Shown: piece by piece, positions 13,296-55,332 of the stretch
Numbering within the stretch: position 1 is the stretch's first letter
How the letters are laid out: every line of letters begins with the position of its first letter
DNA from: a virus
Strand: one strand, 5' to 3'
Length of the DNA stretch: 58,829 nt
Virus record (IMG/VR): IMGVR_UViG_3300045988_093898
Location: 1-58,829 of that record
Notes under the pieces: model-generated
What the model was told of the DNA's origin: nothing
The model's database searches: none
What the model saw: only the letters and a program-made list of their open reading frames with translations
Translations under genes and position numbers: made by a program

Positions 13296-16200
13296 TTGAT
13301 GGAATTAGATAGTTTAGAACTGAAAGTATCGGCAGAAGCACAGTCGGCAGAAAAAGCACTTGACAGCCTTATAGGTAAATTGCAGAGTTTTTCGGAAGCA
13401 CTTGGCGGTATAAACACTACTTCCATCAGTAAAAACCTTGAAAATCTTGCTAAAGTCGGCGGCTTGAAAACTATCACTAAAGAGGTAGAGGACTTAGGAA
13501 AAACTGTAGACAATGTCGGTAAGAAGAAAACAAAGACTGAGGTTAAAGTCGATGTTAAGCAAGGGTTAGAAGCTATAAAGGAATTACAAAGCAAGTTTTC
13601 CAATATAGGTAAAGGAACACAATTTAACGGCAATTTAAGCAGTTTAGAAAAAGAATATGATAAATTGTCGGCTAAGCTAGATAAACTTGCTGAAAGAGAA
13701 CAGAAAGCACTTGCAATAGGAACTGCATCAACAAACGATAAGGCGTTTCAAAGTTTACAATACGATATTGCTAACACAATAAACAAACTAGCAGAACTTG
13801 AAACAAAGATACAAAGTGTTAAAAACCAAAATACATCTCAAACAGCTAATATACCGATTTTTAGATGGGACAATCAAAATACAGGCAGTACACAAAATAT
13901 TACAGAGAATATTGAGAAGTCACTTAAAAGCATTCCTGAAACCGCAAAATATTCGGTAGAGCAAGCACAGAAATCATTAAATGAAGCTATATCTAAAGTG
14001 CAAAATGCACAGACGAATGTTGAAGATTTTTCGCAAAGAATATCACAGGCTAGAGCTAATCTTAAAAATGTTGAAGTGAGCGGCAAAGGCATGGGTACCG
14101 ATGAATGGGATAGAGCCTATATTGCTTTGCAAAAAGTTGTTTCAGAAGCTAAGCAATATAAAGCGGCTTTAAATGAGCGTGCAACAGGTATCAATACAGA
14201 TATAAGCGAGACAGACAGTCTTGATACTAAGGTTAATAAACTGAGAGAAGATTTAAAGCAGTTAAAAGCGGATGGATTTGGTTTTGGTGATACCACATTT
14301 GACAAAACATATCAGCAACTTAATCAAGCTGAAAAAGAACTTGCAGAGTACAAAGCTAGACTGACAGAAAGCGAAACATCGACAAGAAGTTTTAGCAGTA
14401 CATTAAAGAGTGCGGCAACAGGTTTTTCTAATTTTATCAGTAAGATTAAAAATGCTGGTGCGGCAACATTGAATTTTGCTAAGAATGTCCGTAACATGAA
14501 ATCGCCTTTGAAACTTGCACTCGGTCAAATTAGTAAATTAGGAAATTCGGTTGCAAGGCTGTATTTCAAGTACATGATGCTGTCAAGGGTTGCTGGTGCA
14601 CTTGGTAAAGTTCTTGGTATATCAAGTGATTATGTTGAGGAATACAACTATTTTCAAAAGGCAATAGACAAGATTGCACAGGAAAATAAAGGCAATTACA
14701 AAAAATACGGCTATGATAATGCTAAGAGTTATGCGGATAGCTTTGAGGATAGACTTACAACTCTTACAGGCAAAATGACAGGATATAAGCCCGATAAAAA
14801 TGGAAATCTTATAGATACTGATACGGCAAGTCTTGGGCTTGATATTACACAGGTTACAAACTTTGAAGCTCAAATCGCACAAATGACAAACTCTGTCGGA
14901 ATGATGGGTGAGGCATCTATTGCAACCTCAAAAGCCATGACAATGCTTGCTGGGGATATGTCCTCATTAACAAATATGCCACTCGACACCGTTATGAAAA
15001 ACTTTTCAAGTGGTCTTTCGGGTGCGGCAATGGCTGTCAAAAAATACGGCATGGACATATCAGTTGCAGCATTACAGGAAACAGCACTTGGGCTAGGTGT
15101 TAAGAAAAATGTTTCTGATATGACACAGGCTGAGAAAGAGTATTTGCGTGTTATCACTATGTTACAGCAGTCTAAAGTAGCATGGGGCGACTTAGCAGAC
15201 ACAATAAATCAACCAGCAAACCAGTTTAGAATGTTAAAATCAAACATTAAGCAATGTGGTTTGATGTTATCAAGATTATTTATGCCTGTCATACAAAAAG
15301 TATTACCGTGGTTAAATGCAATGGCAATGGCTGTTAAAGACTTAATGAAACATATCGGTGATTTGTTTGGTTTAAAGTTTGATAGCAGTCTTGGTTCAAC
15401 AGGCAGTGACACATCAGATACCTATGACGATGTATCAGACAGTGCCGACAATGCGGCAGATAGTATAAATGATGCGGCAGATGCACAGAAAAAGTTTAAT
15501 AAGCAGTTACAGGGATTTGATAAGTTAAATAATCTTACGACAAATGAAACATCTAAGAAAGACAGTGACAAGGATAAAAACGGCACAGGAAATGTTAGCG
15601 GCGTATTATCTGATGCTCTTATAAATGCTGTCGAGGATTATGAAAAACGCTGGAATAAAGCGTTTAAAAGCATGACAAGTGATGCTGATAACCTCAAAGA
15701 AAAGATTGAAAAATTATTTACAACAGCTTGGGACACAGGTGACGGAACAGAAATCGGTGAAGCACTTGCGACAACCTTAAATAAGGGCATTGACTGGGTG
15801 AATAATAATACAGACAAGTGGACTAAAGGACTTAAAAAGATTACAAGTATCATGGGTACATCTTTGAATGGTTTTGTTAAAAAGTTCAAATGGGATGGTC
15901 TCGGAAAAGCTGTTGGAAATTCGATTAAAGGAGTGCTTGAAGCAGAAACAAACTTTTTTAAAAAAGTAAACTGGGTAAATCTTGGAAAAGGTTTGTCAAG
16001 TACACTTAATTCAGCTATAAAAACAGGAGTTTTGCAGTCGTACTTTAAATCAATGGCAAGTAAGCTAAGGGCGGCTATTGAGACAGCGTTTGGAGCAATT
16101 ACTACTTTTGATTTTAAAGGACTTGGAAATGCGTTAGGACAGGGAATAAATGACTTTTTTAAGACAATGAATAAGAAAAATAAGCAGACTGGTCTTAATG

Positions 16201-18263
16201 GATGGCAAGAACTTGGAAAAAGTTTAAGTGATGGCATAAAAGGCATTGCAGATACATTAACTACAGCTTTAAAAAAGGTGAAGTGGGAGAAAGTCGGTCA
16301 AAGTATTGGAGATTTTATCTCAGCTATTGATTTTGGCAAGGTTACTTGGAGCTTATTAGGTTTAGCAAAAGCGTTGGTCAGTGCGATAGGCTCAGCTCTC
16401 AAAGGTTCATTTTCAAAAGCACCTATTGAGACAGGTTTATTGGCGGCATTTGCATTGGTAAAATACACTGGTATAGGAAAGTTTATTGCTGGCGAAGTTT
16501 CTAAGAAAATGGCGGCTTTTTTAGCTGAAAAAATGGGTTTTGAAATCGCAAAAGACGCAGGAATAAGCACAGCCATCAAAACAGGGCTTAAAGGGCTTAT
16601 AGCAAAAGCAGGCTTAACAAGTTTAAGTGTTTCAGTAGGTGTAGTTGGGATAGCTGCGGCAACAGCGGCGTTGGTAACTTTCTATAACTATGTAGAAAGC
16701 AAAGCTGATGAAAAAATAAAGTTAGATATATCAGAAGCTAATAAGGCATTAGGTGACTTAAATTCATCAGCGAAAGAATGTGAAAAAGCGGTCAACAAAA
16801 CTAAAGATGCTTTAAAGAAAGTTGAAGCAAGAGACGAAAATGCTCAAAAAAAGGGAAAAGACCTTGAAGTATTAGCAAATGCTTATTATAAATTATCGAA
16901 AAAAGTTAATAAAACCAAAGGTGAACAAGAAACTTTAAAGAGAATGTCGAAAGAGCTTTCAAAACAAATGCCCGGACTTAAAAAGAATATCGACAAAGAA
17001 ACTGGAGCGTATAAAGGAAGTTATAAACAGCTTAAAAAACTTGTTGAAAAAACGAAAGAGTATTACAAAGCGAAAGCTGCGCAAAAAGACCTTGAAGATA
17101 TTGGAAAAAAACTTTATGAAAACGAAAAGGATTTAGCAAAAGCGGCAAATGATGCAAAGAAAGCGGAAGCTATATTAAAGAACGAAAGAATAAATCTTGT
17201 AAATCAGACAAAAAGATTAAATGAACTTGAAGAAAAAAACTTAAAATGGAAAAGTGGCTCAGCTTCAATGACCAAATCCGAATATACGGAAATGGAAAAA
17301 TTGCGTACAGAAGTGCCGAAACTTGCACAAAAATTACAAGACCAAGAAAAAGTTTATAAAAACCACAAAAAGGAACTTGGGGCACTTAAAGACACACAAC
17401 AAGAACTCAATGAAAAGTATAATACAGCTTCTGACTATGTAGAGAAATATACAAAAAAGGTAGACAGTAATACTACTAGCACCAATAAGCAAAAAGACGC
17501 TATAAAAGGTGTTGGGGAAGAAACCGATAAATTGTCAGGCAAAAAAGCTACTGTATCTATAAATTCCAAAGGAGTTGAAAAGACTAAAAAAGATATTGAC
17601 GGTATAACGAGTAAAAAAGTTAAAGTTACCGCAAATGCCAAAAAAGGTAAAAATTTTGATAAAACAAAAAAGGATTATGACGATTTTAAGACTAAAAATG
17701 CAAATATAAAGCTAAATGTAAAAAATGCAGACAAGTTAAAGGAAGTTGTGAAAAATCCGTTGCTAACCGATATAGGTAAGAAAAGCACAATAAAAAGGAA
17801 TGTAGAGATTACTTTTAAGATGAAAAACAATTTCACTGACAATCTCTCTGATTTTTTAAATAAAATTTCGACTGGAAGCAAACCTAAAAAGAAAGCAAAA
17901 GGCGGTATCTTTGAAAACGGCTCATGGCATAACATAGCTAAGTATGCAAGCGGCGGTATGCCGAACATGGGGCAGTTATTTGTAGCAAGAGAAAAAGGTC
18001 CTGAGCTTGTAAGTACATTAAAAGGTCATACTGCGGTTATGAACAATGACCAAATAGTTGCGTCGGTATCTCAAGGTGTGTCAGATGCGGTATATAATGT
18101 TATGACACCTGTTTTAACAAGTCTTGTAACAAGTATAAACCGCATGAATAGTAGCGGCACTCCTTTGTATGTCGAGGGTGTTTCTGAGGGCGATATAGTT
18201 AAGATAACACAGAATGCTAATGCTGATTACAAGAAGCGGTATGGCAAACCTCTTTTCACTTAG
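13296..18263 (+). CDS. tape measure protein
   Basis: 1655 aa, coiled-coil rich with central hydrophobic segments, positioned after the chaperones. Confidence 0.9.
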   Translation: MMELDSLELKVSAEAQSAEKALDSLIGKLQSFSEALGGINTTSISKNLENLAKVGGLKTITKEVEDLGKTVDNVGKKKTKTEVKVDVKQGLEAIKELQSKFSNIGKGTQFNGNLSSLEKEYDKLSAKLDKLAEREQKALAIGTASTNDKAFQSLQYDIANTINKLAELETKIQSVKNQNTSQTANIPIFRWDNQNTGSTQNITENIEKSLKSIPETAKYSVEQAQKSLNEAISKVQNAQTNVEDFSQRISQARANLKNVEVSGKGMGTDEWDRAYIALQKVVSEAKQYKAALNERATGINTDISETDSLDTKVNKLREDLKQLKADGFGFGDTTFDKTYQQLNQAEKELAEYKARLTESETSTRSFSSTLKSAATGFSNFISKIKNAGAATLNFAKNVRNMKSPLKLALGQISKLGNSVARLYFKYMMLSRVAGALGKVLGISSDYVEEYNYFQKAIDKIAQENKGNYKKYGYDNAKSYADSFEDRLTTLTGKMTGYKPDKNGNLIDTDTASLGLDITQVTNFEAQIAQMTNSVGMMGEASIATSKAMTMLAGDMSSLTNMPLDTVMKNFSSGLSGAAMAVKKYGMDISVAALQETALGLGVKKNVSDMTQAEKEYLRVITMLQQSKVAWGDLADTINQPANQFRMLKSNIKQCGLMLSRLFMPVIQKVLPWLNAMAMAVKDLMKHIGDLFGLKFDSSLGSTGSDTSDTYDDVSDSADNAADSINDAADAQKKFNKQLQGFDKLNNLTTNETSKKDSDKDKNGTGNVSGVLSDALINAVEDYEKRWNKAFKSMTSDADNLKEKIEKLFTTAWDTGDGTEIGEALATTLNKGIDWVNNNTDKWTKGLKKITSIMGTSLNGFVKKFKWDGLGKAVGNSIKGVLEAETNFFKKVNWVNLGKGLSSTLNSAIKTGVLQSYFKSMASKLRAAIETAFGAITTFDFKGLGNALGQGINDFFKTMNKKNKQTGLNGWQELGKSLSDGIKGIADTLTTALKKVKWEKVGQSIGDFISAIDFGKVTWSLLGLAKALVSAIGSALKGSFSKAPIETGLLAAFALVKYTGIGKFIAGEVSKKMAAFLAEKMGFEIAKDAGISTAIKTGLKGLIAKAGLTSLSVSVGVVGIAAATAALVTFYNYVESKADEKIKLDISEANKALGDLNSSAKECEKAVNKTKDALKKVEARDENAQKKGKDLEVLANAYYKLSKKVNKTKGEQETLKRMSKELSKQMPGLKKNIDKETGAYKGSYKQLKKLVEKTKEYYKAKAAQKDLEDIGKKLYENEKDLAKAANDAKKAEAILKNERINLVNQTKRLNELEEKNLKWKSGSASMTKSEYTEMEKLRTEVPKLAQKLQDQEKVYKNHKKELGALKDTQQELNEKYNTASDYVEKYTKKVDSNTTSTNKQKDAIKGVGEETDKLSGKKATVSINSKGVEKTKKDIDGITSKKVKVTANAKKGKNFDKTKKDYDDFKTKNANIKLNVKNADKLKEVVKNPLLTDIGKKSTIKRNVEITFKMKNNFTDNLSDFLNKISTGSKPKKKAKGGIFENGSWHNIAKYASGGMPNMGQLFVAREKGPELVSTLKGHTAVMNNDQIVASVSQGVSDAVYNVMTPVLTSLVTSINRMNSSGTPLYVEGVSEGDIVKITQNANADYKKRYGKPLFT

Positions 18264-18328: not shown

Positions 18329-19147
18329 ATGAGAAAAAGTTTTTTTACAAAGATTGTAGCATTTTTAGGGATAGCAACTCTTGTTATTTCCAGTACCTAT
18401 ACTACATCTTATGCAATATGTAATCACAGATGGGTTTTAGATTCTAGTTTTAGTGAAAAACCCACATGTTCTGAGGCGGGTTATAATTGGTATGATTGCT
18501 CTATTTGCGGCGATTCTAAGAAAGTGACTGTTCCAGCGACAAGAATACATAAATGGACGGAGTGGAAAGCTGATGGTTATTTATGTGAGGATGGAAAGTG
18601 GGAAAGATATTGCACTGAATGTTACAAAGAAGAAACAAAAGCAAGACAAGGTGATGGCTCACATTTATGGTCTAATTGGGAAGTGTGGACAGAAGCTGAC
18701 TGTTTAAACAAAGGACAGGAAAGCAGATATTGTTATAATTGCTCTCAAAGAGAATACAAGGATATTCCAGTTGATGACACAAAACATGATTGGAGTAGTT
18801 GGAGTACATTGTGGGATGAAAGTGTAGAACCTACAATTTTTAAAAGTGGAAAACAGACAAGACATTGTTATACTTGTTCAAAAATAGAAATAAAGAAAAT
18901 ACCTAAATTAAAGGCAACAGTTTTAATATCATGCAAGAGCAAAACTTTAAAAGTAGGTGAAAAGCTGAAATTAAAAATAAAGAAAAGAACTTATCCTGAT
19001 GTATTGAAAAGTTGGACTACTGACAACAAAAAAGTTGCTAAAGTCAATAAAAAAGGAAAAGTTTTGGCTGTTAAAAAAGGGAAAGCTACGATAACTTTAA
19101 AAATGAAAAGTGGTTGCACAGCAACTTGCAAGGTAAAAGTTAAATAA
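18329..19147 (+). CDS. secreted Cys-rich repeat protein with C-terminal Big_2 (bacterial Ig-like) domain
   Basis: Signal peptide MRKSFFTKIVAFLGIATLVISS. Four ~40-aa repeats of H.W..W....C...G...R.C..C. C-terminal KVAKVNKKGKVLAVKKGKATITLK is typical of Big_2. Confidence 0.62.
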   Translation: MRKSFFTKIVAFLGIATLVISSTYTTSYAICNHRWVLDSSFSEKPTCSEAGYNWYDCSICGDSKKVTVPATRIHKWTEWKADGYLCEDGKWERYCTECYKEETKARQGDGSHLWSNWEVWTEADCLNKGQESRYCYNCSQREYKDIPVDDTKHDWSSWSTLWDESVEPTIFKSGKQTRHCYTCSKIEIKKIPKLKATVLISCKSKTLKVGEKLKLKIKKRTYPDVLKSWTTDNKKVAKVNKKGKVLAVKKGKATITLKMKSGCTATCKVKVK

Positions 19148-19171
19148 AACAAATATCATATAAAACCACAA

Positions 19172-19196
19172 GGCGGATTTAATATCCGTCTTTTTT
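19172..19196 (+). terminator. rho-independent terminator
   Basis: Stem ggcggat/atccgtc followed by T6. Confidence 0.65.
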
Positions 19197-19234
19197 AGTA
19201 CAATCAAAAAACTTGAAAAAATTTAAAAAAGGTA

Positions 19235-19263
19235 TTGACTTTCTGTGGCTACAGTATTATATT
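19235..19263 (+). promoter_or_regulatory. promoter of RHH cassette 1 (TTGACT, 17-nt spacer, TATATT)
   Basis: Read directly. The upstream A-rich block ttgaaaaaatttaaaaaagg is homologous to 47476-47500. Confidence 0.55.
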
Positions 19264-19296
19264 TATTGTAGCGACAAAAAGAAAAGAGGTGATAAG

Positions 19297-19476
19297 ATGT
19301 CGCCAAGAACAGGCAGACCAAAATCTGATAACAGTAAAGATGTAATGTTTAGAGTTCGCCTTGATAAAGATATGGTTGAAAAACTGGAAAAGGCTTCGGA
19401 AAACTTAAATATTACAAAATCAGATGTTGTCAGAAACGGTATTGAAAGTGAATACCAAAGGTCTATAAAAAAATAA
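19297..19476 (+). CDS. ribbon-helix-helix (CopG/Arc-like) regulator, paralog of 47562..47729
   Basis: MSPRTGRPKSDNSKDVMFRVRLDKDMVEKLEKASENLNITKSDVVRNGIE: a beta-strand followed by two helices. RBS AGAGGTG. Confidence 0.7.
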   Translation: MSPRTGRPKSDNSKDVMFRVRLDKDMVEKLEKASENLNITKSDVVRNGIESEYQRSIKK

Positions 19477-19541
19477 GAACAGTTACATCACCCTGAGAAA
19501 GTACGCAACTGTTCTAACAACAACCCTATAAAGGAATTGAT
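19467..19541 (-). ncRNA. predicted cis-antisense small RNA (about 75 nt) between the RHH gene and the downstream gene
   Basis: A minus-strand promoter at 19548-19576 points into hairpin 19477-19514, which on the minus strand is followed by a T-run. The same arrangement is conserved at 47719-47827. Confidence 0.5.
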
Positions 19542-19547
19542 AAATAT

Positions 19548-19576
19548 ATTCTATCATTACTTTATAGGGAAATCAA
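19548..19576 (-). promoter_or_regulatory. minus-strand promoter TTGATT, 17-nt spacer, TAGAAT
   Basis: The plus strand reads attcta (19548-53) and aatcaa (19571-76). Both hexamers and the 17-nt spacing are conserved in cassette 2 while the spacer sequence differs. Confidence 0.5.
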
Positions 19577-19604
19577 GCAAATTTTGAAAGCGAGGTAGAA
19601 TATT

Positions 19605-19979
19605 ATGACAAAAGCAGAATTAGAAGAAAAAGCAGACCGCATGGAATATCAGTTAGACTTAGAGAAAACAAGGAAAGAAATCATTGAAATGGTAAACGGA
19701 TGTAGTTCGCTTATAACTCTTAAAGAAATGAAAGGAAATGTCAAAGAATTGTATCGCAGACATACTACAGACTGGGTAAATGTAGCGTTAAGGGATAATC
19801 TTTGCGACCTTGCCAAACAGTTGTCAGACAATTACGAATATGAAATATTGAGAAATATAAATGTTATGCTCTATGCAATGGTTTTGAAAAATGGAAAAAT
19901 TGACACTGACAGCCTTTTTCTTACACCGTACATGGAAAGTATGAAACAAAAACGCAATATACAAGGGGGTGCAGCATAA
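19605..19979 (+). CDS. hypothetical protein (124 aa), translationally coupled to the antirepressor gene
   Basis: RBS GAGGT. Its stop overlaps the next start (TAATG at 19977-19981). Confidence 0.55.
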   Translation: MTKAELEEKADRMEYQLDLEKTRKEIIEMVNGCSSLITLKEMKGNVKELYRRHTTDWVNVALRDNLCDLAKQLSDNYEYEILRNINVMLYAMVLKNGKIDTDSLFLTPYMESMKQKRNIQGGAA

Positions 19980-20764
19980 TGAATGAGATAAATAATGTAA
20001 TAGATATGAAAACTCCGATTGAGATTGCTTTACAGATTGATGAAAGCGGTCACACTACAGCGAGAGCATTGTATGATTTTTTGGAGCTTGCACCAAGTCA
20101 GTTTTCAAGATGGGCTAAAACCAATATTGAGAGTAATGAGTTTTATGAAGAAAATAAAGATTGGTGGGGGTTCGACATTATGTTGAACGGTAATAAATGT
20201 AAGGATTATCGACTTACAACAGATTTTGCGAAGCATCTATCTATGGAAAGTCATTCTGCCAAGGGCAAGACAGCAAGGCAGTATTTTGTTAAGGTAGAAG
20301 ATAAAGTAAAGGAAGTTGTAATCAATCGTTCTCAGTTATCTCCACAGATGCAGATGTTTTATGCAATAGCAGACGAACAGGCTAAAATGGAGCTTGAACA
20401 AAAACGGCAGGCAGAGCAGATAAATAAAGTTGAGCAGACAGTTGACAACATGAAAGAGATATTCACAGAGCCTATCGGAGATTGGAAAGCCGAAATAAAT
20501 TCAAGGGTTCGTGAAATATCAATCAAGAGTAACATTGACTATCAGACACTTTATAATCAGCTTTACGGCGAACTGGAGACAACAGCACATTGCAGTCTTA
20601 AAAGATTACAGGATAACAAGAAAAAGCGTATGGAAAAGGCAGGCAATACAAAGACTGCTATTAAACAGGAAACTACAAAAATTGCAATTATATACGAAAA
20701 GCCACAACTTAAAGCAATATTTGAAAATATAGTCAAGAAATATGCTATGAGTTATTGTGCATGA
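19979..20764 (+). CDS. AntA-type phage antirepressor-like protein
   Basis: N-terminal ...TARALYDFLELAPSQFSRWAKTNIESNEFYEENKDWW... resembles the AntA domain. The C-terminal half is coiled-coil. Confidence 0.6.
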   Translation: MNEINNVIDMKTPIEIALQIDESGHTTARALYDFLELAPSQFSRWAKTNIESNEFYEENKDWWGFDIMLNGNKCKDYRLTTDFAKHLSMESHSAKGKTARQYFVKVEDKVKEVVINRSQLSPQMQMFYAIADEQAKMELEQKRQAEQINKVEQTVDNMKEIFTEPIGDWKAEINSRVREISIKSNIDYQTLYNQLYGELETTAHCSLKRLQDNKKKRMEKAGNTKTAIKQETTKIAIIYEKPQLKAIFENIVKKYAMSYCA

Positions 20765-20800: not shown

Positions 20801-20828
20801 GGACAGAACTACATATTCTGTCCTTTTT
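20801..20828 (+). terminator. rho-independent terminator
   Basis: Stem ggacagaa/ttctgtcc followed by T6. Confidence 0.7.
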
Positions 20829-20872
20829 TGATGCAAAAAATCATTAACCTTAAAAAGTTTAGAGGTAGAATT

Positions 20873-27112: not shown

Positions 27113-27487
27113 TTAATCAATAAACTTTTCAAAAAAATCACATAACACTTCTTTTTTATCTGTTGATAACTTATCATACTTTATAATGAATTTCTTAAAT
27201 CTTTCATCATGCAATCCTATTTTCATCACAATATCTGAATATTCATCGTCGGTATCTTCAAATTGCTTTTCTTCTATCAAGTCGGTCATTCCTATATTGA
27301 AGTAATCAGCAATCTTTCTAAGTTTTCCAGTACCAGGAAGTGAATTGCCTTTACACCACATATTTAATGTTGTAGGCTTTTCGTTCAATTCTTTTGCAAC
27401 ATCTATCTGTTGTTTCTGATTTAAAGCTATATATTTGTTTAAGTTTTTGGCAAATATACGCTTTGTTTCTTCCCTATCATCTGTCAT
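27113..27487 (-). CDS. CI-like repressor (XRE-family HTH)
   Basis: Motif IFAKNLNKYIALNQKQQIDVAKELNEKPTTLNMWCKG. Divergent from a Cro-like gene. Confidence 0.8.
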   Translation of the reverse strand: MTDDREETKRIFAKNLNKYIALNQKQQIDVAKELNEKPTTLNMWCKGNSLPGTGKLRKIADYFNIGMTDLIEEKQFEDTDDEYSDIVMKIGLHDERFKKFIIKYDKLSTDKKEVLCDFFEKFID

Positions 27488-27529
27488 AGCTATCCTCCTT
27501 TCATTTTGTATTATATAGCAAAACTAAAA

Positions 27530-27597
27530 AAAATTCAATATAAAATCCAATTATTTTGAATTTTAGTCTTGACAATTCAATGTGATTGAATTATAGT
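27530..27597. promoter_or_regulatory. genetic switch: two palindromic operators with half-site AATTCAA plus the rightward promoter
   Basis: aaaattcaa (27530-38) pairs with ttgaatttt (27556-64). aattcaat (27574-81) pairs with attgaatt (27585-92). TTGACA 27569-74, 17-nt spacer, TATAGT 27592-97. Confidence 0.6.
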
Positions 27598-27628
27598 TGT
27601 ATTATCAAATCAAGAAAGGAGTGGTTAG

Positions 27629-27832
27629 ATGCCGAAGATTTCTCTTGAAGCAGTAAGAGTAAATGCAAAAATGACACAGAAAAACTGGGCTAAATTGCTT
27701 GGTGTTTCGGTAACAACAGTGATTAACTGGGAAAAAGGGAATACTGAGCCGAGCTTATCTCATTTGAAAGAAATGAGCCGTTTATCAGGCATTCCAATGG
27801 ATTTTATTTTTGTACCCGATAAATCCAATTAA
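27629..27832 (+). CDS. Cro-like XRE-family HTH regulator
   Basis: 67 aa. Motif MTQKNWAKLLGVSVTTVINWEKG. Confidence 0.75.
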   Translation: MPKISLEAVRVNAKMTQKNWAKLLGVSVTTVINWEKGNTEPSLSHLKEMSRLSGIPMDFIFVPDKSN

Positions 27833-27862
27833 ATTGAATTTTAAATGTCGGAAAGGAGAATT

Positions 27863-28609
27863 ATGAACGATTTACAGATATTTAATAATGAAGAGTTCGG
27901 AAAAGTAAGAACGGCTCTTGTAAATGAAGAACCAATGTTTTGCTTAATAGATATTTGCAAGGCGTTGGAAATTAAAAATGCTACTGATGTAGCGAAAAGG
28001 CTTGATGAAGATGAACTGACTAGATTAAATCTAGGCAGTCGTGCAGGTGAAACAAATTTCATAACAGAAAGCGGTTTGTATGCGGTTATCTTAAGAAGTG
28101 ACAAGCCGAATGCAAAGAAGTTTCGTAAATGGGTAACATCAGAGGTTCTTCCATCAATCAGAAAAAACGGCGGTTACATAGTAGGACAGGAAAACATGAC
28201 GGATGATGAACTCATGGCAAAAGCACTTATGGTGGCACAGAATAAGATTGCTGAGAGAGACAAACAGATTGAACGCATGAAACCGAAAGAAATATTTGCC
28301 GACGCAGTATCGGCTAGTGAAACATCAATCCTTGTCGGAGATTTAGCAAAGCTGATTTCTCAGAACGGTTACAAAATCGGACAAAAGAGGTTGTTTGAAT
28401 GGTTAAGAACGAATAACTTCCTTATTAAATGCGGTTCATCGAGAAATATGCCACAGCAGAGATTTGTTGAACAGGGATTGTTTGAAGTCAAAGAAAGCAA
28501 CATTCAGAACCCCGATGGCAGTGTGAGAATAACACGCACAACTAAGGTCACAGGCAAAGGGCAGATTTACTTTGTTAATAAGTTTATGAAAAGTGAGGTA
28601 ACAGCATGA
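27863..28609 (+). CDS. antirepressor (Bro-N + KilAC/ANT domains)
   Basis: LQIFNNEEFGKVRTALVNEEPMFCLIDICKALE (Bro-N). The C-terminal ...LAKLISQNGYKIGQKRLFEWLR...VTGKGQIYF is KilAC-like. Confidence 0.75.
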   Translation: MNDLQIFNNEEFGKVRTALVNEEPMFCLIDICKALEIKNATDVAKRLDEDELTRLNLGSRAGETNFITESGLYAVILRSDKPNAKKFRKWVTSEVLPSIRKNGGYIVGQENMTDDELMAKALMVAQNKIAERDKQIERMKPKEIFADAVSASETSILVGDLAKLISQNGYKIGQKRLFEWLRTNNFLIKCGSSRNMPQQRFVEQGLFEVKESNIQNPDGSVRITRTTKVTGKGQIYFVNKFMKSEVTA

Positions 28610-41792: not shown

Positions 41793-41966
41793 TTAAAATA
41801 ACAATAAATGGAAACGAGATAAAAGCAGAGGATGTAACTTTATCTGCCGATATTGTAAAAATCATAACATCATGCCTTGATTGACATTATATTTTAAAAA
41901 GGTTAGAATGTGTCGTAAGTACGATAAATGCGGCACATTCTTTTTATATAAAAGGAGGATTTGAAG

Positions 41967-43340
41967 ATGGAATGTGTTGCGTACATGAGAGTATCAACAG
42001 AAAAACAAGCAGAAGATGGAAACGGGCTGGAAAGCCAAAAAAGAGATATTGATAATTACTGCAATAAGAACGGTTATATAATCAGTGATTACTATATTGA
42101 CGATGGTTATACTGGTGCAAACATGGACAGACCACAGCTGCAACGACTTATCAGCGATTGTGTATCGAAAAGAGTGAAGTGTGTTGTTGCTTTTAAATTA
42201 GACAGGTTGTCACGAAGCATGGTTGATGGAATATATATCATCGAACGAGTGTTTCAAGCAAACAACATCTTGTTTAAATGTGTGCATGACAGTATAAGCT
42301 ACGACAGTCCGATGGAGCAAGCATATACTCAGATGATGGCAGTTTTTGCACAGCTTGATAAAAACACAATGATGTTGCGTATGCGTGGCGGTATGTTGGA
42401 AAGAGTAAAGCAAGGCTACTGGATGGGTGGCGGTAATACTCCTTATTGCTATAAGTATGATAAGGAAAAAGGAATTTTAGTACCTATACCCGAACGGAAA
42501 GAGCAGGCAAATCAAGCATTAGATTTGTTTATCGACGGCTATTCGGATGTTGCAATTAAAAAAATGCTTAATTTTACGCATGAGCATACTGTTAAAATGG
42601 TTTTAACAAGTCCAGTAAACATCGGCATGATACCATATAAGGGCAATTTATATAAAGGTTTGCATGAGCCTATTTTTGATAAAGATAGATTTCAGCTTGC
42701 ACAGGAAGCGAGGAAAAACAGAAGAAAAAAGAAAACAGTTAGCCTCAACAAAGAACCAAATTTATTGACAGGTTTATGTTATTGCGGTGTGTGTGGATGT
42801 AAAATGCGTTATCAAAAATGGGGAAGTGAATCTGATGCACCTAAAAAAATTTACTGTTGCTCACGAAACAAAGATTTATTTTATTTGCCGAATTACAATA
42901 GAGACTGCGATAATTCAATAGAATGGGCTACCGACATTGAAAAACAAGTCGAAGCTGAGATAATAAAAATATCTTTAAATTTGTCATCGCAAAAACCAAT
43001 CGCAAAGCAGAGTAAAATTGATATAATACAGTCGCAAATCAAAAAGGAAAAATATCGCCGCAAAAGGCTTTTTAATCTTTACGCAGATGGAAATGACGAT
43101 GTTTTGAATATAATAAAACAGTCAGACGATACTATCAGTAGTTTAAAAGAACAACTTGAAATTGAATTATTAAGTAAAGAAGCAAATAAAAAGAAAAGTA
43201 TTGCCTATGAGAACATCAAAAAAATTGCCGATGTTTGGGACAGCATCGACAAAAGAAATAAAAATATGATACTTAAAACTATAATTGACAAGATAATAAT
43301 TGTCAATGGAGATATTGAGATACAATTAAAGAATTTTTAG
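41967..43340 (+). CDS. large serine recombinase (integrase)
   Basis: N-terminal AYMRVSTEKQ catalytic motif. About 457 aa with a Cys-rich zinc-ribbon (CYCGVCGCKMRY...YCCSRN) and a coiled-coil C-terminus. Confidence 0.85.
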   Translation: MECVAYMRVSTEKQAEDGNGLESQKRDIDNYCNKNGYIISDYYIDDGYTGANMDRPQLQRLISDCVSKRVKCVVAFKLDRLSRSMVDGIYIIERVFQANNILFKCVHDSISYDSPMEQAYTQMMAVFAQLDKNTMMLRMRGGMLERVKQGYWMGGGNTPYCYKYDKEKGILVPIPERKEQANQALDLFIDGYSDVAIKKMLNFTHEHTVKMVLTSPVNIGMIPYKGNLYKGLHEPIFDKDRFQLAQEARKNRRKKKTVSLNKEPNLLTGLCYCGVCGCKMRYQKWGSESDAPKKIYCCSRNKDLFYLPNYNRDCDNSIEWATDIEKQVEAEIIKISLNLSSQKPIAKQSKIDIIQSQIKKEKYRRKRLFNLYADGNDDVLNIIKQSDDTISSLKEQLEIELLSKEANKKKSIAYENIKKIADVWDSIDKRNKNMILKTIIDKIIIVNGDIEIQLKNF

Positions 43341-47500: not shown

Positions 47501-47528
47501 TTGACTTTTGGAACTCATAAGTTATAAT
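47501..47528 (+). promoter_or_regulatory. promoter of RHH cassette 2 (TTGACT, 16-nt spacer, TATAAT)
   Basis: Read directly. The direct repeat ggaactc appears twice around the -10 element. Confidence 0.55.
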
Positions 47529-47561
47529 AGACTTATGGAACTCAAAAGTGAGGTGATGATA

Positions 47562-47729
47562 ATGAGTCCACGCTTAGGCAGACCAACTGATTGTAAAAAA
47601 GACCATGATGTTAAAGTTAGAATTGATAGTGATACTCACGAAAAGTTATTAGAGTATTGCAAAAATCATGGTATTACAAAAGCTGAAGCTATTCGCCAAG
47701 GCATTCATTTGGTCTTAGAAAAAAAATAA
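47562..47729 (+). CDS. ribbon-helix-helix regulator, paralog of 19297..19476
   Basis: MSPRLGRPTDCKKDHDVKVRIDSDTHEKLLEYCKNHGITKAEAIRQGIHLVL. RBS GTGAGGTG. Confidence 0.7.
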   Translation: MSPRLGRPTDCKKDHDVKVRIDSDTHEKLLEYCKNHGITKAEAIRQGIHLVLEKK

Positions 47730-47792
47730 AAGTAACCGACACCCTAGACAAGTAGAAGTTACTCTTAAAACACCAATCCGAAAGAGATTGAT
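47719..47792 (-). ncRNA. predicted cis-antisense small RNA (second copy)
   Basis: Minus-strand promoter 47799-47827. Hairpin 47731-47763 is followed by a T-run on the minus strand. Confidence 0.5.
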
Positions 47793-47798
47793 AAATAT

Positions 47799-47827
47799 AT
47801 TCTACCAATTTCTTTCGTAGAAATCAA
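47799..47827 (-). promoter_or_regulatory. minus-strand promoter TTGATT, 17-nt spacer, TAGAAT
   Basis: The plus strand reads attcta (47799-804) and aatcaa (47822-27). Confidence 0.5.
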
Positions 47828-47855
47828 GTGAATAAAAACATTGGAGGTACAAGCC

Positions 47856-48155
47856 ATGAAAAGATATAATTTAATAAATAAAGACGGGGAAATCGAAAGC
47901 ACACTTTATATAGGTAGCGCAAGACAAATAAAGAAAGTGTATGATAGAGCACTTTATAACATAAATGATACTAGCTTAGAAGGCTATATCTTTAATACTA
48001 ATTATAAATTTAATATGGACATACATTACGGTGTATGTTTTTGTTACCATAGCACTTTTTTCGACAAGCCACAAATGTTATTTTGTACACCTAATAAAAT
48101 AACTGAAATTTTATTAGATGCTTACAAGGTGGAGGAAGTAACTTTGCTTTGTTAA
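47856..48155 (+). CDS. hypothetical protein (99 aa), cargo of RHH cassette 2
   Basis: GGAGGT upstream of ATG 47856. Confidence 0.5.
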   Translation: MKRYNLINKDGEIESTLYIGSARQIKKVYDRALYNINDTSLEGYIFNTNYKFNMDIHYGVCFCYHSTFFDKPQMLFCTPNKITEILLDAYKVEEVTLLC

Positions 48156-48173
48156 TATGATATTCAAATTTAT

Positions 48174-48212
48174 AAACCATCAACTGATATACTTAGTTGG
48201 TGGTTTTATTTT
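48174..48212 (+). terminator. terminator hairpin whose 5' arm is the right copy of the 17-bp inverted repeat
   Basis: aaaccatcaact (48174-85) pairs with agttggtggttt (48195-206), followed by tattttg. Confidence 0.6.
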
Positions 48213-48225
48213 GTGAGGTGATTTT

Positions 48226-48546
48226 ATGTTTATAATAAACAATATAATGTGGCAAATTGTATTTGTGCCAAGCGATAGTGATAAACTTATGCGTTCTGAC
48301 GGTTCTATTAGCCTTGCTGTGACCGATTTTAACGACAAGACGGTATATGTATCGGATAATGTAAAAAACGGCTATTTACGCAAAGTAATGGCTCATGAAT
48401 TATGCCATTGTTTTTGTTTCAGTTACAACATATATATGCCTATTCAGCAAGAGGAATATTTGGCTGACTGGATAAGTTTATATGGTGCAGATTTGATATA
48501 TTTACTTGACGATTTGATGATAACTTTAACAAGGAGTGTGGCATGA
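48226..48546 (+). CDS. HExxH metallopeptidase-like small protein
   Basis: VMAHELCHCF motif. 106 aa. Confidence 0.5.
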   Translation: MFIINNIMWQIVFVPSDSDKLMRSDGSISLAVTDFNDKTVYVSDNVKNGYLRKVMAHELCHCFCFSYNIYMPIQQEEYLADWISLYGADLIYLLDDLMITLTRSVA

Positions 48547-49099: not shown

Positions 49100-49765
49100 A
49101 TGAGCAGTCCCGAAAATGATTTTATCGTTGTGAACACAAAGGAGGATGTCTTAAAAGAACGGTATATTGCCGGTGCTGATTTAGTCGGCAGATATGGATT
49201 CCCACAATTAACTCCGGTTTATGCACACTTAGAAGATGTTGAGCCGGTACCGTTCAATCTTGTAAGTAAAGAAAAGCATCCGAAAAATTGTGTTTGCCAT
49301 TTTTTTATAGATGATGTACGGTTTGAACGACTTTGGAACAATCCAAGTAAATACATGGATATATTGAAAAACTTTAAATATATATGCAGTCCCGATTTTA
49401 CTTTCTATGATGATATGCCACTTGCATTGAAAATATGGCAAATATACAGAAGTCGGGCATTAAGCTATTGTTTAAGTCAAGCCGGTTTAAAGATTATCCC
49501 GACTGTAGGCTGGGGAAGTGAAGAAACTTTTGATTTTTGTTTTGATGGTTTACCGGCACACTCCACGCTTGCGGTATCGACAAACGGATGTTTTTCTGAG
49601 GATGGGAAAGAATGTTATAGAAAAGGTTTTAAAGAAATGTGCAGGCGATTGGAGCCGATTCAAGTTGTTGTTTTTGGTTCTCAAATTGATGTTGATATAG
49701 ATGTAGATATTGTTTATAAATCGAGCTACTGGCAGCAAATGAGTGAACGACTAAAAAAGAGGTGA
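49100..49765 (+). CDS. DUF4417 domain protein
   Basis: CHFFIDDVRFERLWNNPSKY...SPDFTFYDDMPLALKIWQIYRSRAL...IPTVGW pattern as I recall for DUF4417. Confidence 0.55.
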   Translation: MSSPENDFIVVNTKEDVLKERYIAGADLVGRYGFPQLTPVYAHLEDVEPVPFNLVSKEKHPKNCVCHFFIDDVRFERLWNNPSKYMDILKNFKYICSPDFTFYDDMPLALKIWQIYRSRALSYCLSQAGLKIIPTVGWGSEETFDFCFDGLPAHSTLAVSTNGCFSEDGKECYRKGFKEMCRRLEPIQVVVFGSQIDVDIDVDIVYKSSYWQQMSERLKKR

Positions 49766-54932: not shown

Positions 54933-55004
54933 TGGGGCATCGCCAAGAGGTTAAGGCATAGCACTTTGACTGCTACATCATGGGTTCAAATCCCATTGCA
55001 CCAG
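54933..55004 (+). tRNA. tRNA-Gln (anticodon TTG)
   Basis: Manual cloverleaf. Acceptor tggggca/tgcacca (one G-A mismatch). Anticodon arm tagca-cttTTGac-tgcta. T arm atggg-ttcaaat-cccat. No encoded CCA. Confidence 0.8.
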
Positions 55005-55260: not shown

Positions 55261-55332
55261 TGGCATATAGCTCAGTGGTAGAGCAACAGATTGTTAATCT
55301 GTGGGTCGTAGGTTCGATACCTACTATGCCAG
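55261..55332 (+). tRNA. tRNA-Asn (anticodon GTT)
   Basis: Manual cloverleaf. Acceptor tggcata/tatgcca. D arm gctc-agtggta-gagc. Anticodon arm acaga-ttGTTaa-tctgt. T arm gtagg-ttcgata-cctac. Confidence 0.88.

Follow-up and report, generated by a model that had tools for sequence, protein, structure and literature searches.

We find that the tail operon of a temperate phage of gut Clostridia contains an insulated "moron" cassette that probably holds an antirepressor under two layers of control, as a functional analogue of the immI region of phage P22. One layer would be an RHH-type repressor and the other a predicted antisense RNA encoded opposite the spacer behind the repressor gene. This cassette (cassette A) was analyzed within the window, that is, the whole stretch of 58,829 nucleotides under study, which also contains a paralogous unit (cassette B). 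All of the features listed in an earlier sequence-only reading were found in the 58.8-kb window where that reading had placed them.

Judged from predicted signals, cassette A is an independently expressed insertion in the tail operon, served by a promoter of its own and bounded by terminators. It consists, in order, of a terminator, a TTGACT promoter with operator repeats at the -10 box, the RHH gene, a 128-nt spacer, orf124, a coupled AntA gene and a second terminator. The tape measure gene (13296-18263) and then a Big_2 gene lie upstream, and a DUF6711 gene and a gene for a 934-aa tail protein lie downstream. An intrinsic terminator 3' of the Big_2 gene (19170-19199, plus strand), found in a terminator scan as a 9-bp stem followed by a T-run, shields the cassette from the tail genes upstream. 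The cassette promoter (TTGACT-17-TATATT, 19235-19263, plus strand) matches the consensus at 10 of 12 positions. The closing intrinsic terminator (GGACAGAA...TTCTGTCC followed by T6; 20801-20829, plus strand) was read by eye and is absent from the terminator-scan list. No plausible minus-strand gene lies 5' of cassette A, where the plus-strand Big_2 gene and the terminator are located. The sequence-only reading had described a self-contained unit between tail genes, made up of the promoter, the RHH gene, the 128-nt spacer, a 124-aa ORF and an AntA gene overlapping it at TAATG; this description holds, and the flanking terminators complete it. In one sequence alone, 10 promoter-like sites were found compared to 8.9 expected, so that hexamers are no commoner than chance; the cassette signals rise above chance because the element recurs in comparative data, not from single-sequence hexamer counts.

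The first gene of cassette A encodes an RHH-type regulator of 59 aa (19297-19476, plus strand; TAA stop at 19474-19476). This assignment, made previously from the sequence alone, is supported by a match to PHROG 876 "transcriptional repressor" (E 1.6e-15) and by homologues that bear PF12651 and are named RHH proteins. Matches to Pfam fall just under the cut-off (RHH_3, 5.8e-4; RHH_1, 9e-4), with PF01402 (RHH_1, CopG family) scoring 19.6 bits against a cut-off of 20.5. Weak matches were seen to the PHROG "Arc-like" (6e-4), to RelB/BrnA antitoxin models and to a RepA/CopB regulator, and a sequence search of the PDB gave nothing significant. The AF2 model (pLDDT 81) has an extended segment followed by two helices. 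In a structure search the best E value was 3.5 and Arc ranked second with a TM of ~0.5, the query being a 59-aa monomer of an obligate dimer and hence a poor one. Across the 18 sequence groups examined, a TTGACT...TATAAT promoter invariably precedes the RHH gene, and in all 18 the -10 box is surrounded by direct or inverted repeats of 8-11 nt whose sequence is specific to the group. In cassette A, this comparison defines the putative operators TGTGGCTACA (19243-19252) and TGTAGCGACA (19266-19275) on either side of the -10 box (together 19243-19275, plus strand), and we infer that the RHH protein binds these -10-flanking repeats. The palindrome ctgtggctacag, previously proposed as the operator, is more likely a diverged copy of the direct repeat TGTAGCGACA, which flanks the -10 box in close relatives.

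The strand opposite the spacer carries the signals for a predicted cis-antisense RNA of ~75 nt (19467-19541, minus strand), recognized by its promoter and terminator geometry, its fold and a covariance-model match (19462-19580, minus strand, 116 bits). Its promoter (19548-19576, minus strand), identified by a promoter scan and by conservation, consists of TTGATT (19576-19571), a 17-nt spacer and TAGAAT (19553-19548), with a TG at -15/-14, giving the extended -10 form TTGATT-17-TGaTAGAAT. The predicted RNA comprises a single-stranded 5' tail, a U/G-rich linker, a terminator hairpin (H1) and a U-run. H1 (gaacagtt/aactgttc, 19477-19514, minus strand) abuts the RHH stop, and its helices 3 and 4 covary. 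In the predicted antisense RNA it is the terminator stem, and the mRNA has its complement as the matching loop. H1 is more stable on the minus strand than on the plus strand (-14.8 versus -9.9 kcal/mol), with 2.8 versus 0.6 G-U pairs per hairpin, and its apical helix is composed mostly of U-G pairs that form on the minus strand only and are C-A mismatches in the mRNA. The antisense promoter is kept in 43 of 47 distinct viral spacers and, with its 17-nt spacing, in 37 of 39 viral and 38 of 49 genome distinct model hits; a T-run follows H1 on the minus strand in 37 of the 39 and 48 of the 49. Compared to this, a regex scan for plus-strand promoters in the spacer found almost none. Neither H1 nor H2, a second hairpin described below, is followed by a U-run on the plus strand, and both were rejected as plus-strand terminators or attenuators. 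The predicted antisense start lies 52-74 nt past the RHH stop, with the -35 box between the start and the Shine-Dalgarno (SD) sequence in all loci, and the predicted RNA of cassette A ends short of the orf124 ribosome-binding site. The cognate antisense:sense duplex, fully complementary over ~75 nt, has a calculated energy of about -125 kcal/mol. The existence of the predicted ~75-nt countertranscript is thus strongly supported by its extended -10 promoter, its T-run terminator and its minus-strand-specific U-G pairs. The conserved signals agree with the earlier proposal of a minus-strand TTGATT-17-TAGAAT promoter and of a hairpin abutting the RHH stop and followed by a T-run, and add the TG at -15/-14.

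The sequence-only reading was correct about H1 and overlooked H2, which also covaries. H2 (19524-19569, plus strand) is located in the mRNA leader, with covariation in helices 1 and 2 and z-scores against shuffled sequences of -5.95 on the plus strand and -4.31 on the minus strand. The 5' tail of the antisense RNA would target the 5' arm of H2, and the 3' arm falls within the antisense -35/-10 spacer; because H2 spans the antisense promoter, it can be whole only in the mRNA. Within the 3' arm, AUUCUAUC is complementary to the orf124 ribosome-binding region GAGGTAGAAT (19590-19604, plus strand), which suggests that this arm is a putative anti-SD. In folding calculations, the probability that the SD is unpaired fell from 0.40 to 0.27 when the antisense target was masked (Wilcoxon p 8e-7). 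The duplex between the H2 3' arm of copy A and its own SD has an energy of -11.9 kcal/mol, compared to a mean of -5.6 with foreign SD regions. Native pairings also exceed foreign ones across 17 viral groups (-11.1 versus -8.0 kcal/mol) and across 44 independent genome copies (-11.1 versus -8.3 kcal/mol), with a permutation p of ~1e-5 in each. This complementarity is a moderate trend that is missing in copy B, where the arm-SD duplex (-5.7 kcal/mol, rank 12 of 17) leaves SD sequestration unsupported, and in several further loci. For some loci, folding without the antisense RNA already gives the SD-sequestering helix as the structure of lowest energy. In tandem arrays, what follows a unit is a further promoter with its RHH gene, and no SD lies at the usual distance, so SD sequestration cannot be the sole function of the element.

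To compare the element across loci, we seeded a covariance model from copy A alone and iterated it once (model R2); it replaced a plain MAFFT alignment of 25 elements, which had yielded no consensus structure (0 pairs). The model has only two matches in the window (116 and 83 bits; E 1e-23 and 8e-16). Beyond the window, the element was recovered 3' of the same RHH family in ~90 distinct Clostridia phage or prophage loci, and it recurs after this family in two independent collections. Family members combine a PHROG 876-type RHH gene with features of the other strand, namely an extended -10 promoter (consensus TTGnnn-17-TGnTAnnnT), an H2 that spans it, H1 and, at the RHH stop, a T-run; both window copies share every one of these features. 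Orientation is nearly invariant: 48 of 49 model hits in genome loci are antisense to the RHH gene, nearly all straight after its stop, as are 49 of 49 in the viral loci plus the window. Paired cells make up 91.5% and 87.6% in two sets, versus 41-49% in slid controls; the alignments were fitted to the model, and the slid controls carry the same bias. Double-sided changes occur at 32 of 36 and 35 of 36 pairs, and the second set was left out of model building. The covariance-model search suggested in the sequence-only reading has therefore recovered a conserved, covarying element, and both the -35/-10 hexamers and the compensatory stem changes that it looked for in homologues are present. All stems covary while the loop motif is retained, and near-identical copies can differ by an exact inversion of the loop; in about 8 of ~70 copies the H1 loop motif is on the opposite strand. 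Units form tandem arrays in some loci, and the phage examined here has two.

Some relatives lie at the edge of the model. R2 scores the phiCD211 copy poorly (17 bits), and the copies on Clostridium perfringens plasmids are also poorly detected; by eye, both follow the same logic in a different register or with a shorter RNA. The phiCD211 unit, which is of the same kind as cassette A, adjoins the tape measure gene of that phage, and small C. perfringens plasmids carry relatives of the RHH gene together with a shorter antisense unit. Searches of Rfam returned only two tRNAs at the gathering threshold and only chance-level matches at E up to 10, of which ctRNA_pT181 was the best relevant one. Our literature searches found no description of the element in Firmicute phages, and the terms "Clostridi" and "Gram-positive" are absent from a 2025 review of phage small RNAs (PMC12197685). 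As defined by these comparisons of sequence and predicted structure, the element is a large family of predicted regulatory RNAs that is uncatalogued and absent from Rfam.

The promoter of cassette B (TTGACT-16-TATAAT, 47501-47528, plus strand), defined by sequence and repeat comparison, has GGAACTCA repeats around the -10 box and is followed by a 55-aa RHH regulator gene (47562-47729, plus strand). The product matches PHROG 876 (9e-16), exceeds the 21-bit cut-off of Pfam RepB-RCR_reg (PF10723) with 23.2 bits, and weakly matches PRK13702 (1.9e-5), a CopB/RepA-regulator model. The antisense element (47712-47831, minus strand; 83 bits, E 7.5e-16) contains a promoter, H2, H1 and a T-run. As previously pointed out, spacer B (47730-47855) has the same promoter hexamers and spacing as spacer A with a differing spacer sequence (TTGATT-17-TGgTAGAAT) and its own hairpin (agtaac/gttact, loop core CACCCT.GA.AAGTA). 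The cargo (47856-48546, plus strand) consists of orf99 (47856-48155) and a gene for a 106-aa HExxH protein (48226-48546), and has no antirepressor domain. Cross-pairing between A and B is only partial, at -36 to -38 kcal/mol compared to -120 to -125 for cognate pairs.

In cassette A, the first cistron under the predicted antisense control is orf124 (19605-19979, plus strand), a variable small ORF without a match in Pfam, PHROGs, NCBIfam or the PDB. ORFs of 40-148 aa occupy this position in most loci; they differ between loci, while the antirepressor 3' of them recurs. The next gene (19979-20764, plus strand) encodes an AntA-family antirepressor, as the sequence-only reading had recognized (Pfam AntA, 7.6e-15; PHROG 373 anti-repressor, 1e-31), and its ATG lies within the orf124 stop (TAATG), in keeping with the translational coupling proposed there. 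Antirepressor-type cargo (AntA, ORF6N, Rha or Bro-N/KilAC) was found behind 36 of 67 modules; in 16 of these it is the first ORF, in 14 the second and in 6 the third. The count is given pooled because iterated local phmmer searches fused the families by way of C-terminal domains that they have in common. In about half of the modules, no antirepressor was recognized within three ORFs. From the antirepressor cargo of cassette A we infer the "second immunity" role of this cassette.

The two layers of control could operate as follows. The RHH protein would bind the repeats next to the -10 box in the TTGACT promoter that drives its gene, resulting in less RHH-orf124-antA mRNA. The convergent extended -10 promoter in the RHH-orf124 spacer would produce the ~75-nt antisense RNA ending at H1 and the U-run. 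The antisense H1 loop would then kiss the complementary mRNA loop, and the single-stranded antisense 5' tail would invade the 5' arm of the mRNA H2. The 3' arm of H2, set free, would pair with the orf124 SD region, halting translation of orf124 and, via the TAATG overlap, that of antA. Both the folding results and the swaps of native and foreign SD regions suggest such a release of the 3' arm. Ant would be made only in a burst, once promoter activity exceeds the RHH protein and the antisense RNA, and the antisense layer would also silence transcripts entering from the tail operon, which escape repression by RHH.

Alternatively, the cassette and its antisense RNA could be as described and act by another route, with no SD-sequestering refolding. 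RNase III might cut the duplex, uncoupling and destabilizing the orf124-antA part of the mRNA, or the convergent promoters might interfere by collision or occlusion. Full complementarity over ~75 nt would provide an ideal RNase III substrate, and the two promoters converge at a distance of ~340 bp. Copy B and several other loci without arm-SD complementarity also fit this explanation, as do the tandem RHH-antisense arrays that have no nearby SD to sequester. However, it leaves unexplained the strong covariation of the full H2, half of which is outside the antisense RNA, and the better match of the H2 3' arm to its own than to foreign SDs in two independent sets, and we consider it rather unlikely.

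Two further explanations would change the identity of the module itself. It is very improbable that the spacer is a sense-strand cis-regulatory leader, in which H1 and H2 form a protein-binding, thermosensing or attenuator structure and the antisense hexamers are by-products of the hairpin sequence. Both hairpins do form in the mRNA, the z-score of H2 is slightly better on the plus strand, promoter-like sites occur at chance frequency in a single sequence, and the loop motif of H1 can be on either strand. Yet the TTGnnn box lies outside H2 and is exactly 17 nt from TGnTAnnnT in most copies, the T-run after H1 is confined to the minus strand, and the apical H1 helix would be mismatched in the mRNA; the plus strand has no U-run after either hairpin, which argues that the spacer is not an attenuator. 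We give as little credence to a toxin-antitoxin or plasmid-derived maintenance or copy-control module without an immunity role, in which the RHH protein would be an antitoxin or CopG/CopB-like regulator and orf124 a toxin or leader peptide. The weak RHH matches to RelB/BrnA and RepA/CopB models, the passing RepB-RCR_reg score of copy B, the related units on small C. perfringens plasmids and the sub-threshold likeness to ctRNA_pT181 all point in this direction. Against it, orf124, orf99 and the other small ORFs show no match to a toxin or Rep family, the small ORFs vary between loci while the antirepressor behind them recurs, and no replication initiator follows the unit in phage loci. A type II toxin-antitoxin pair was rejected, as the genes are separated by a 128-nt gap containing a promoter and orf124 and orf99 lack a toxin-family match.

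The antirepressor cassette under two layers of control that we favor has its closest counterpart in P22, where immI (arc, sar, ant) lies between gene 16 and the tailspike gene 9 and the sar terminator abuts the arc stop (NC_002371.2; PMC2629481). The claim in the sequence-only reading that such an arrangement is undescribed in a tail or late operon does not hold, since P22 immI sits likewise in the late operon. In both regions a short spacer lies behind the gene for an RHH-class autorepressor, putative in cassette A (NC_002371.2; PMC2629481; PMC12197685). Both also have a ~70-nt antisense RNA with a convergent promoter and a terminator hairpin at the repressor stop (predicted in cassette A), and an antirepressor gene followed by a terminator. 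Both are independently expressed units in the late operon, each immediately 5' of tail genes. The components themselves differ. P22 Arc matches PF03869 at 5e-31, whereas RHH A has no PF03869 match and no BLASTP alignment to Arc. Ant of P22 has P22_AR_N/C domains, compared to the AntA domain in cassette A, with no significant BLAST alignment, and the Rfam sar model does not match the cassette A RNA at the gathering threshold or at E up to 10. Direct homology to Arc and Ant was rejected on these sequence and domain comparisons. In P22, Psar falls within ant, and sar extends over the ribosome-binding site of ant up to the AUG, whereas in cassette A the promoter is 5' of the SD and the RNA stops short of it. 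Cassette A has in addition the covarying H2 and a small ORF with translational coupling; P22 has the divergent second repressor Mnt, and no Mnt-like gene is present in cassette A. The hosts are Clostridia and enterobacteria, respectively. Cassette A apparently rebuilds the P22 immI layout from non-homologous parts, and its presumed mechanism differs.

Plasmid and phage systems offer other partial parallels. In pMV158, RNAII pairs with the repB translation-initiation signals (PMC5737340). As would be the case in cassette A, an RHH repressor (CopG) autoregulates the operon promoter of pMV158/pLS1 (PMC5737340). Both systems have a short intergenic countertranscript (predicted in cassette A) with a single-stranded 5' tail and one terminator hairpin, both target the downstream cistron of the same mRNA, and both have Gram-positive hosts. 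Unlike RNAII, the cassette A RNA does not overlap translation-initiation signals; the cargo is a Rep initiator in pMV158 compared to orf124 and AntA, and pMV158 lacks an equivalent of H2. The likeness to CopG/RNAII and to P1 c4-icd-ant noted in the sequence-only reading therefore applies to layout, and the direct pairing with the ribosome-binding site does not carry over because the cassette A RNA misses that site. Plasmid R1 (IncFII) has the order copB, copA/copT, tap, repA, starting with a small repressor; its antisense RNA hits the leader well upstream of the main gene, to which a small leader ORF is translationally coupled. In staphylococcal pSK41, RNAI reportedly binds upstream and causes a fold that indirectly sequesters the rep ribosome-binding site. 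These two systems match the indirect, coupled logic proposed for cassette A, a likeness in mechanism accompanied by weak protein matches only; they control replication rather than an antirepressor, and their RNAs are unrelated in sequence to that of cassette A. In P1/P7, the upstream small ORF icd is translationally coupled to ant, and an antisense-type RNA, c4, controls the antirepressor (immI). The action of an antisense-type RNA on an antirepressor through a coupled upstream small ORF is shared with what we propose for cassette A (for c4, PMC12197685), whereas c4, a processing product of the same transcript, works in trans on sites around the ribosome-binding site, with no RHH repressor and no convergent promoter. 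Finally, ctRNA_pT181 (RF00242) is a countertranscript of similar size and architecture and was the only antisense family among the sub-threshold matches (minus strand, 19467-19554; E 2.1). Membership in this family was rejected, with 21.8 bits against a gathering threshold of 56. On the plus strand of cassette A, both H2 and the arm-SD helix lack a U-run behind them, and pT181-type attenuation is unlikely because the sense leader forms no terminator.

A more speculative, and in our view unlikely, extension is that the unit is a portable, stackable RNA and protein "governor," in which a conserved kissing-loop pair (CUUUGGUCGG / CCGACCAAAG type) is common to otherwise unrelated cassettes. The antisense RNAs could then act in trans on non-cognate leaders and link antirepressors within a phage and across co-resident prophages, in an RNA-based network of heteroimmunity or cross-induction; alternatively, an RNA-binding factor of the host or the phage could dock at the loop. 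The retention of the loop while stems covary, its presence on either strand, the tandem arrays and the two copies in this phage fit such an arrangement. Because cross-pairing is only partial, cross-talk between A and B remains speculation.

Antirepressors set when prophages switch on, and they can induce neighboring prophages. To our knowledge, the control of antirepressors is essentially unstudied in gut Clostridia, including the large phiCD211-type phage-plasmids of Clostridioides difficile. The comparisons presented here define a widespread predicted regulatory RNA, with ~90 distinct copies, near-complete covariation, and cognate repressors whose putative operators vary by group. They also offer a mechanism for testing, in which the antisense RNA would free an anti-SD arm, together with a compact collection of repressor, operator and antisense parts that seem to be orthogonal. 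In addition, they give a rule by which "hypothetical" spacers in prophages of Lachnospiraceae and Oscillospiraceae can be annotated. That the logic of P22 immI appears to have been rebuilt from unrelated parts argues that genes within long late operons need a post-transcriptional lock.

The window, about 59 kb long, is a temperate phage whose genes are nearly all on the plus strand. It carries a large serine recombinase that is likely its integrase (41961-43340), a DUF4417 protein gene (49100-49765) and two tRNA genes (54933-55004 and 55261-55332). Its probable primary immunity region lies at 27113-28609, where a CI-like HTH_3 repressor gene of the CI/Cro type (27113-27487, minus strand) adjoins a plus-strand Bro-N/KilAC antirepressor gene (27845-28609). 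The phage therefore has at least two antirepressor genes, since another is found in the tail operon, in a unit that we call cassette A. Tail genes stand on both sides of this cassette: on the upstream side the tape measure gene (13296-18263) and then a gene for a Big_2 protein (18329-19147), and on the downstream side a DUF6711 gene and a tail protein gene (934 aa). The Big_2 protein (272 aa) is Cys-rich and has a hydrophobic segment at its N terminus and the Big_2 domain at its C terminus; its gene has a terminator of its own at 19170-19199 and may be a further accessory insertion in the tail operon.

Cassette A begins with a promoter, TTGACT-17-TATATT (19235-19263), followed on the plus strand by a ribbon-helix-helix (RHH) gene (19297-19476), the hairpin H1 immediately 3' of the RHH stop (19477-19514), orf124 (19605-19979) and an AntA gene (19979-20764) whose start lies within the orf124 stop (TAATG). 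A minus-strand antisense promoter, TTGATT-17-TGaTAGAAT, lies at 19576-19548. With its own promoter and flanking plus-strand terminators (19170-19199 and 20801-20829), the cassette is an insulated transcription unit, or "moron", within the tail operon. A paralogue, cassette B (47501-48155), has the same plan. The anatomy had been drawn correctly in the sequence-only reading, and all of its coordinates held on re-checking; the palindrome it proposed for RHH binding is a divergent version of the repeat TGTAGCGACA, which together with TGTGGCTACA flanks the -10 box as putative RHH operators (within 19235-19280). Because the region contains 10 promoter-like sites compared to 8.9 expected, a single sequence does not rise above chance, and the case for the element, namely the conserved spacer downstream of the RHH gene with its minus-strand promoter, hairpins and T-run, is decided by comparative evidence.

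By BLASTN, the layout of RHH gene, spacer and antirepressor gene also occurs in the C. difficile phages phiCD211, where it immediately precedes the tape measure gene, and ES-S-0107-01. Searches with an alignment of four RHH proteins recovered 80 loci with 47 distinct spacers from IMG/VR and 48 loci from GTDB genomes of Lachnospiraceae, Oscillospiraceae, Faecalibacterium, Blautia, Enterocloster, Sporobacter and others, the closest being Butyribacter intestini (90% RHH identity). A minus-strand TTGnnn-(16-18)-TGnTAnnnT promoter is present in 43 of the 47 distinct viral spacers, 87-109 nt past the RHH stop; the plus strand of these spacers has almost none. Our literature searches found no account of the element in Firmicute phages.

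Because MAFFT could not align the stems, a covariance model was seeded from copy A only and rebuilt from 14 hits. Across the viral loci and the window, the second model picked out 49 elements, every one of them antisense to the RHH gene; copies A and B (116 and 83 bits) were its only hits in the window. In the genome loci, which were outside model training, it found 49 more, 48 of them antisense and nearly all directly 3' of the RHH stop. Paired cells made up 91.5% of the viral and 87.6% of the genome set, compared to 41-46% and 43-49% in controls with partners slid by 1-3 columns. Pairs had changed on both sides at 32 of 36 (viral) and 35 of 36 (genome) positions, and covariation scores were 0.72 and 0.77, compared to about 0.10 and 0.11-0.17 in the slid controls; model-fitted alignments favor structure, but the controls share this bias and the effect is very large. 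The full extended -10 promoter with 17-nt spacing was found in 37/39 distinct viral and 38/49 distinct genome hits, and the T-run at the 3' end in 37/39 and 48/49, respectively. In Rfam, ctRNA_pT181 (RF00242) matches 19467-19554 on the minus strand below threshold (21.8 bits, gathering score 56, E 2.1). The match is not significant; ctRNA_pT181 was the sole antisense-RNA family in the list, and the match falls on the predicted strand.

Three independent features of the sequence point to a predicted RNA on the minus strand: the T-run, the spacing of the -35 box and an apical H1 helix built of U-G pairs. The T-run adjoins H1 on the minus strand only, overlapping the RHH stop and final Lys codons. 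No hairpin includes the -35 box, yet its spacing to the -10 box is kept. The apical H1 helix consists mostly of U-G pairs (for example, in 23 and 28 of 49 sequences at two positions) that are C-A mismatches in the mRNA; H1 has 2.8 G-U pairs per hairpin on the minus strand compared to 0.6 on the plus strand, where it is less stable by 5 kcal/mol on average. The predicted RNA, with a range of 65-90 nt and a length of about 75 nt in copy A (19541 to 19467), comprises a single-stranded 5' tail, a U/G-rich linker, H1 as terminator hairpin and a U-run. The apical loop motif of H1 (CUUUGGUCGG or ACUUGUCnAGGGUG in the antisense sense) is kept while the stems covary, and about 8 of the roughly 70 distinct copies carry it on the opposite strand. 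For example, the stems of the relative loci L044 and L054 (2660-2783) are identical and the loop is exactly inverted, as though the loop had been flipped by way of the palindromic stem; the other loci of note for this motif are L010, L034, L049, L070, L086, L087, L114 and L115.

The RHH proteins match PHROG 876, "transcriptional repressor", at about 1e-15, with weak matches to Arc-like, RHH_3, RHH_1 and aCcr1 models; copy B exceeds the Pfam threshold for RepB-RCR_reg, and homologues are annotated as RHH proteins. An AF2 model (pLDDT 81) has the shape expected of an RHH monomer, two helices preceded by an extended segment at the N terminus; a fold search with it gave no significant match. A TTGACT...TATAAT promoter precedes the RHH gene in all 18 sequence groups, and in each group 8-11-nt direct or inverted repeats, whose sequence varies between groups, flank the -10 box. 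Autoregulation with diversified specificity would give such a pattern.

The usual cargo is a variable small ORF (40-148 aa) followed by an antirepressor gene, and the stop codon of the one often overlaps the start codon of the other; Pfam-confirmed examples are AntA, ORF6N, Rha and Bro-N/KilAC. In a pooled local search, at least 36 of 67 modules had an antirepressor-type gene within three ORFs; the short flanks make this count a minimum. In six loci (L034, L044, L045, L112, L113 and L120), the second ORF past the cassette instead belongs to another recurrent class of cargo, proteins of about 160-212 aa that start MGKFIDLTGQRFGKL... and have Cys-rich motifs. A gene downstream of cassette B (48226-48546) encodes a protein of 106 aa that has an HExxH motif (PHROG 1233) and a weak metalloprotease match to PHROG 87. 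Near-identical proteins are encoded 3' of the Rha antirepressor in L018 and L023, and the protein may serve antirepressor modules as an accessory of the ImmA-like type.

How the RNA would act on its cargo is suggested by a second hairpin of the mRNA leader, H2 (19524-19569, plus strand), which spans the antisense promoter and whose helices 1 and 2 covary as strongly as H1. Since one of its arms falls between the -35 and -10 boxes, upstream of the point where the antisense RNA starts, the whole of H2 can form only in the sense mRNA. In every locus the predicted antisense RNA does not reach the ribosome-binding site because the -35 box sits between its start and the Shine-Dalgarno (SD) region. 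We infer the RNA, the binding of RHH to its operators and the following switch from sequence conservation and folding: antisense binding would release the 3' arm of H2, which could then pair with the SD region. When the antisense-complementary segment was forced to be single-stranded in folding, the arm paired with the SD region, and the mean probability that the SD/AUG window was unpaired fell from 0.40 to 0.27 (25 sequences, Wilcoxon p 8e-7). Arms also paired better with their own SD region than with those of other groups, both in the viral set (-11.1 vs -8.0 kcal/mol, 17 groups) and in the genome set (-11.1 vs -8.3 kcal/mol, 44 copies; permutation p about 1e-5 in each). In copy A, the SD GGUAGAAU pairs with the arm AUUCUAUC (-11.9 vs -5.6 kcal/mol). 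Antisense action would probably be indirect. The nearest mechanistic precedents for such indirect, coupled control are the plasmid systems R1 copB-copA-tap-repA and pSK41 RNAI, the latter reported to act via antisense-induced SD sequestration.

Alternatively, or in addition to this switch, RNase III could cleave the 75-bp duplex or the promoters could interfere. These explanations are live: arm-SD pairing is a trend and not a rule, being missing in copy B (-5.7) and in several other loci. RHH and antisense units also occur in tandem arrays, in L102 (1081-1917; three units with a period of 360 nt), L094 (842-2265), L098, L105, L084, L087, L099, L017/L019 (2666-3144), L064, L066 and L072. In these arrays, what follows a unit is not an SD and cargo but the next promoter and RHH gene, an arrangement that SD sequestration cannot account for.

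Among plasmids, pMV158 CopG/RNAII shares with the cassette the logic of an RHH protein with a countertranscript and the tail-plus-hairpin RNA design. It differs in that RNAII pairs with initiation signals and the cargo is Rep (PMC5737340). A possible plasmid relative is found on a 14.8-kb C. perfringens plasmid (L132, NZ_CP148656.1, 2477-2770) and in L131, where an RHH gene of the CopG family precedes a shorter unit on the minus strand that the covariance model does not pick up. In L132 this unit has a TTTACA-17-TATAAT promoter, a hairpin GGUUGUAGUC/GAUUGCGACC that includes three G-U pairs, and U8; a 45-aa ORF, a DUF6809 gene and an HTH protein gene (440 aa) lie 3' of it.

The closest known system is P22 immI (NC_002371.2). 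There, downstream of gene 16, arc (14861-15022) is followed by minus-strand sar (15021-15090), with its terminator at the arc stop, and by ant (15091-15993), which contains Psar (15097-15125) and precedes a terminator and tailspike gene 9. Casjens and colleagues described this region as an "ant moron" of the late operon (PMC2629481), and the earlier suggestion that such an arrangement was undescribed inside a tail operon is therefore incorrect. Tests of the Arc family, the Ant family and Rfam sar revealed no homology between the two systems. Moreover, in P22 sar covers the ribosome-binding site and Mnt is present, whereas the cassette has neither design feature, and its antisense RNA would probably act in a different way. 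In function, the cassette would be a Gram-positive counterpart of P22 immI assembled from non-homologous parts, and the element represents an RNA/repressor cassette family that is new, large and well supported, with two members in this phage.
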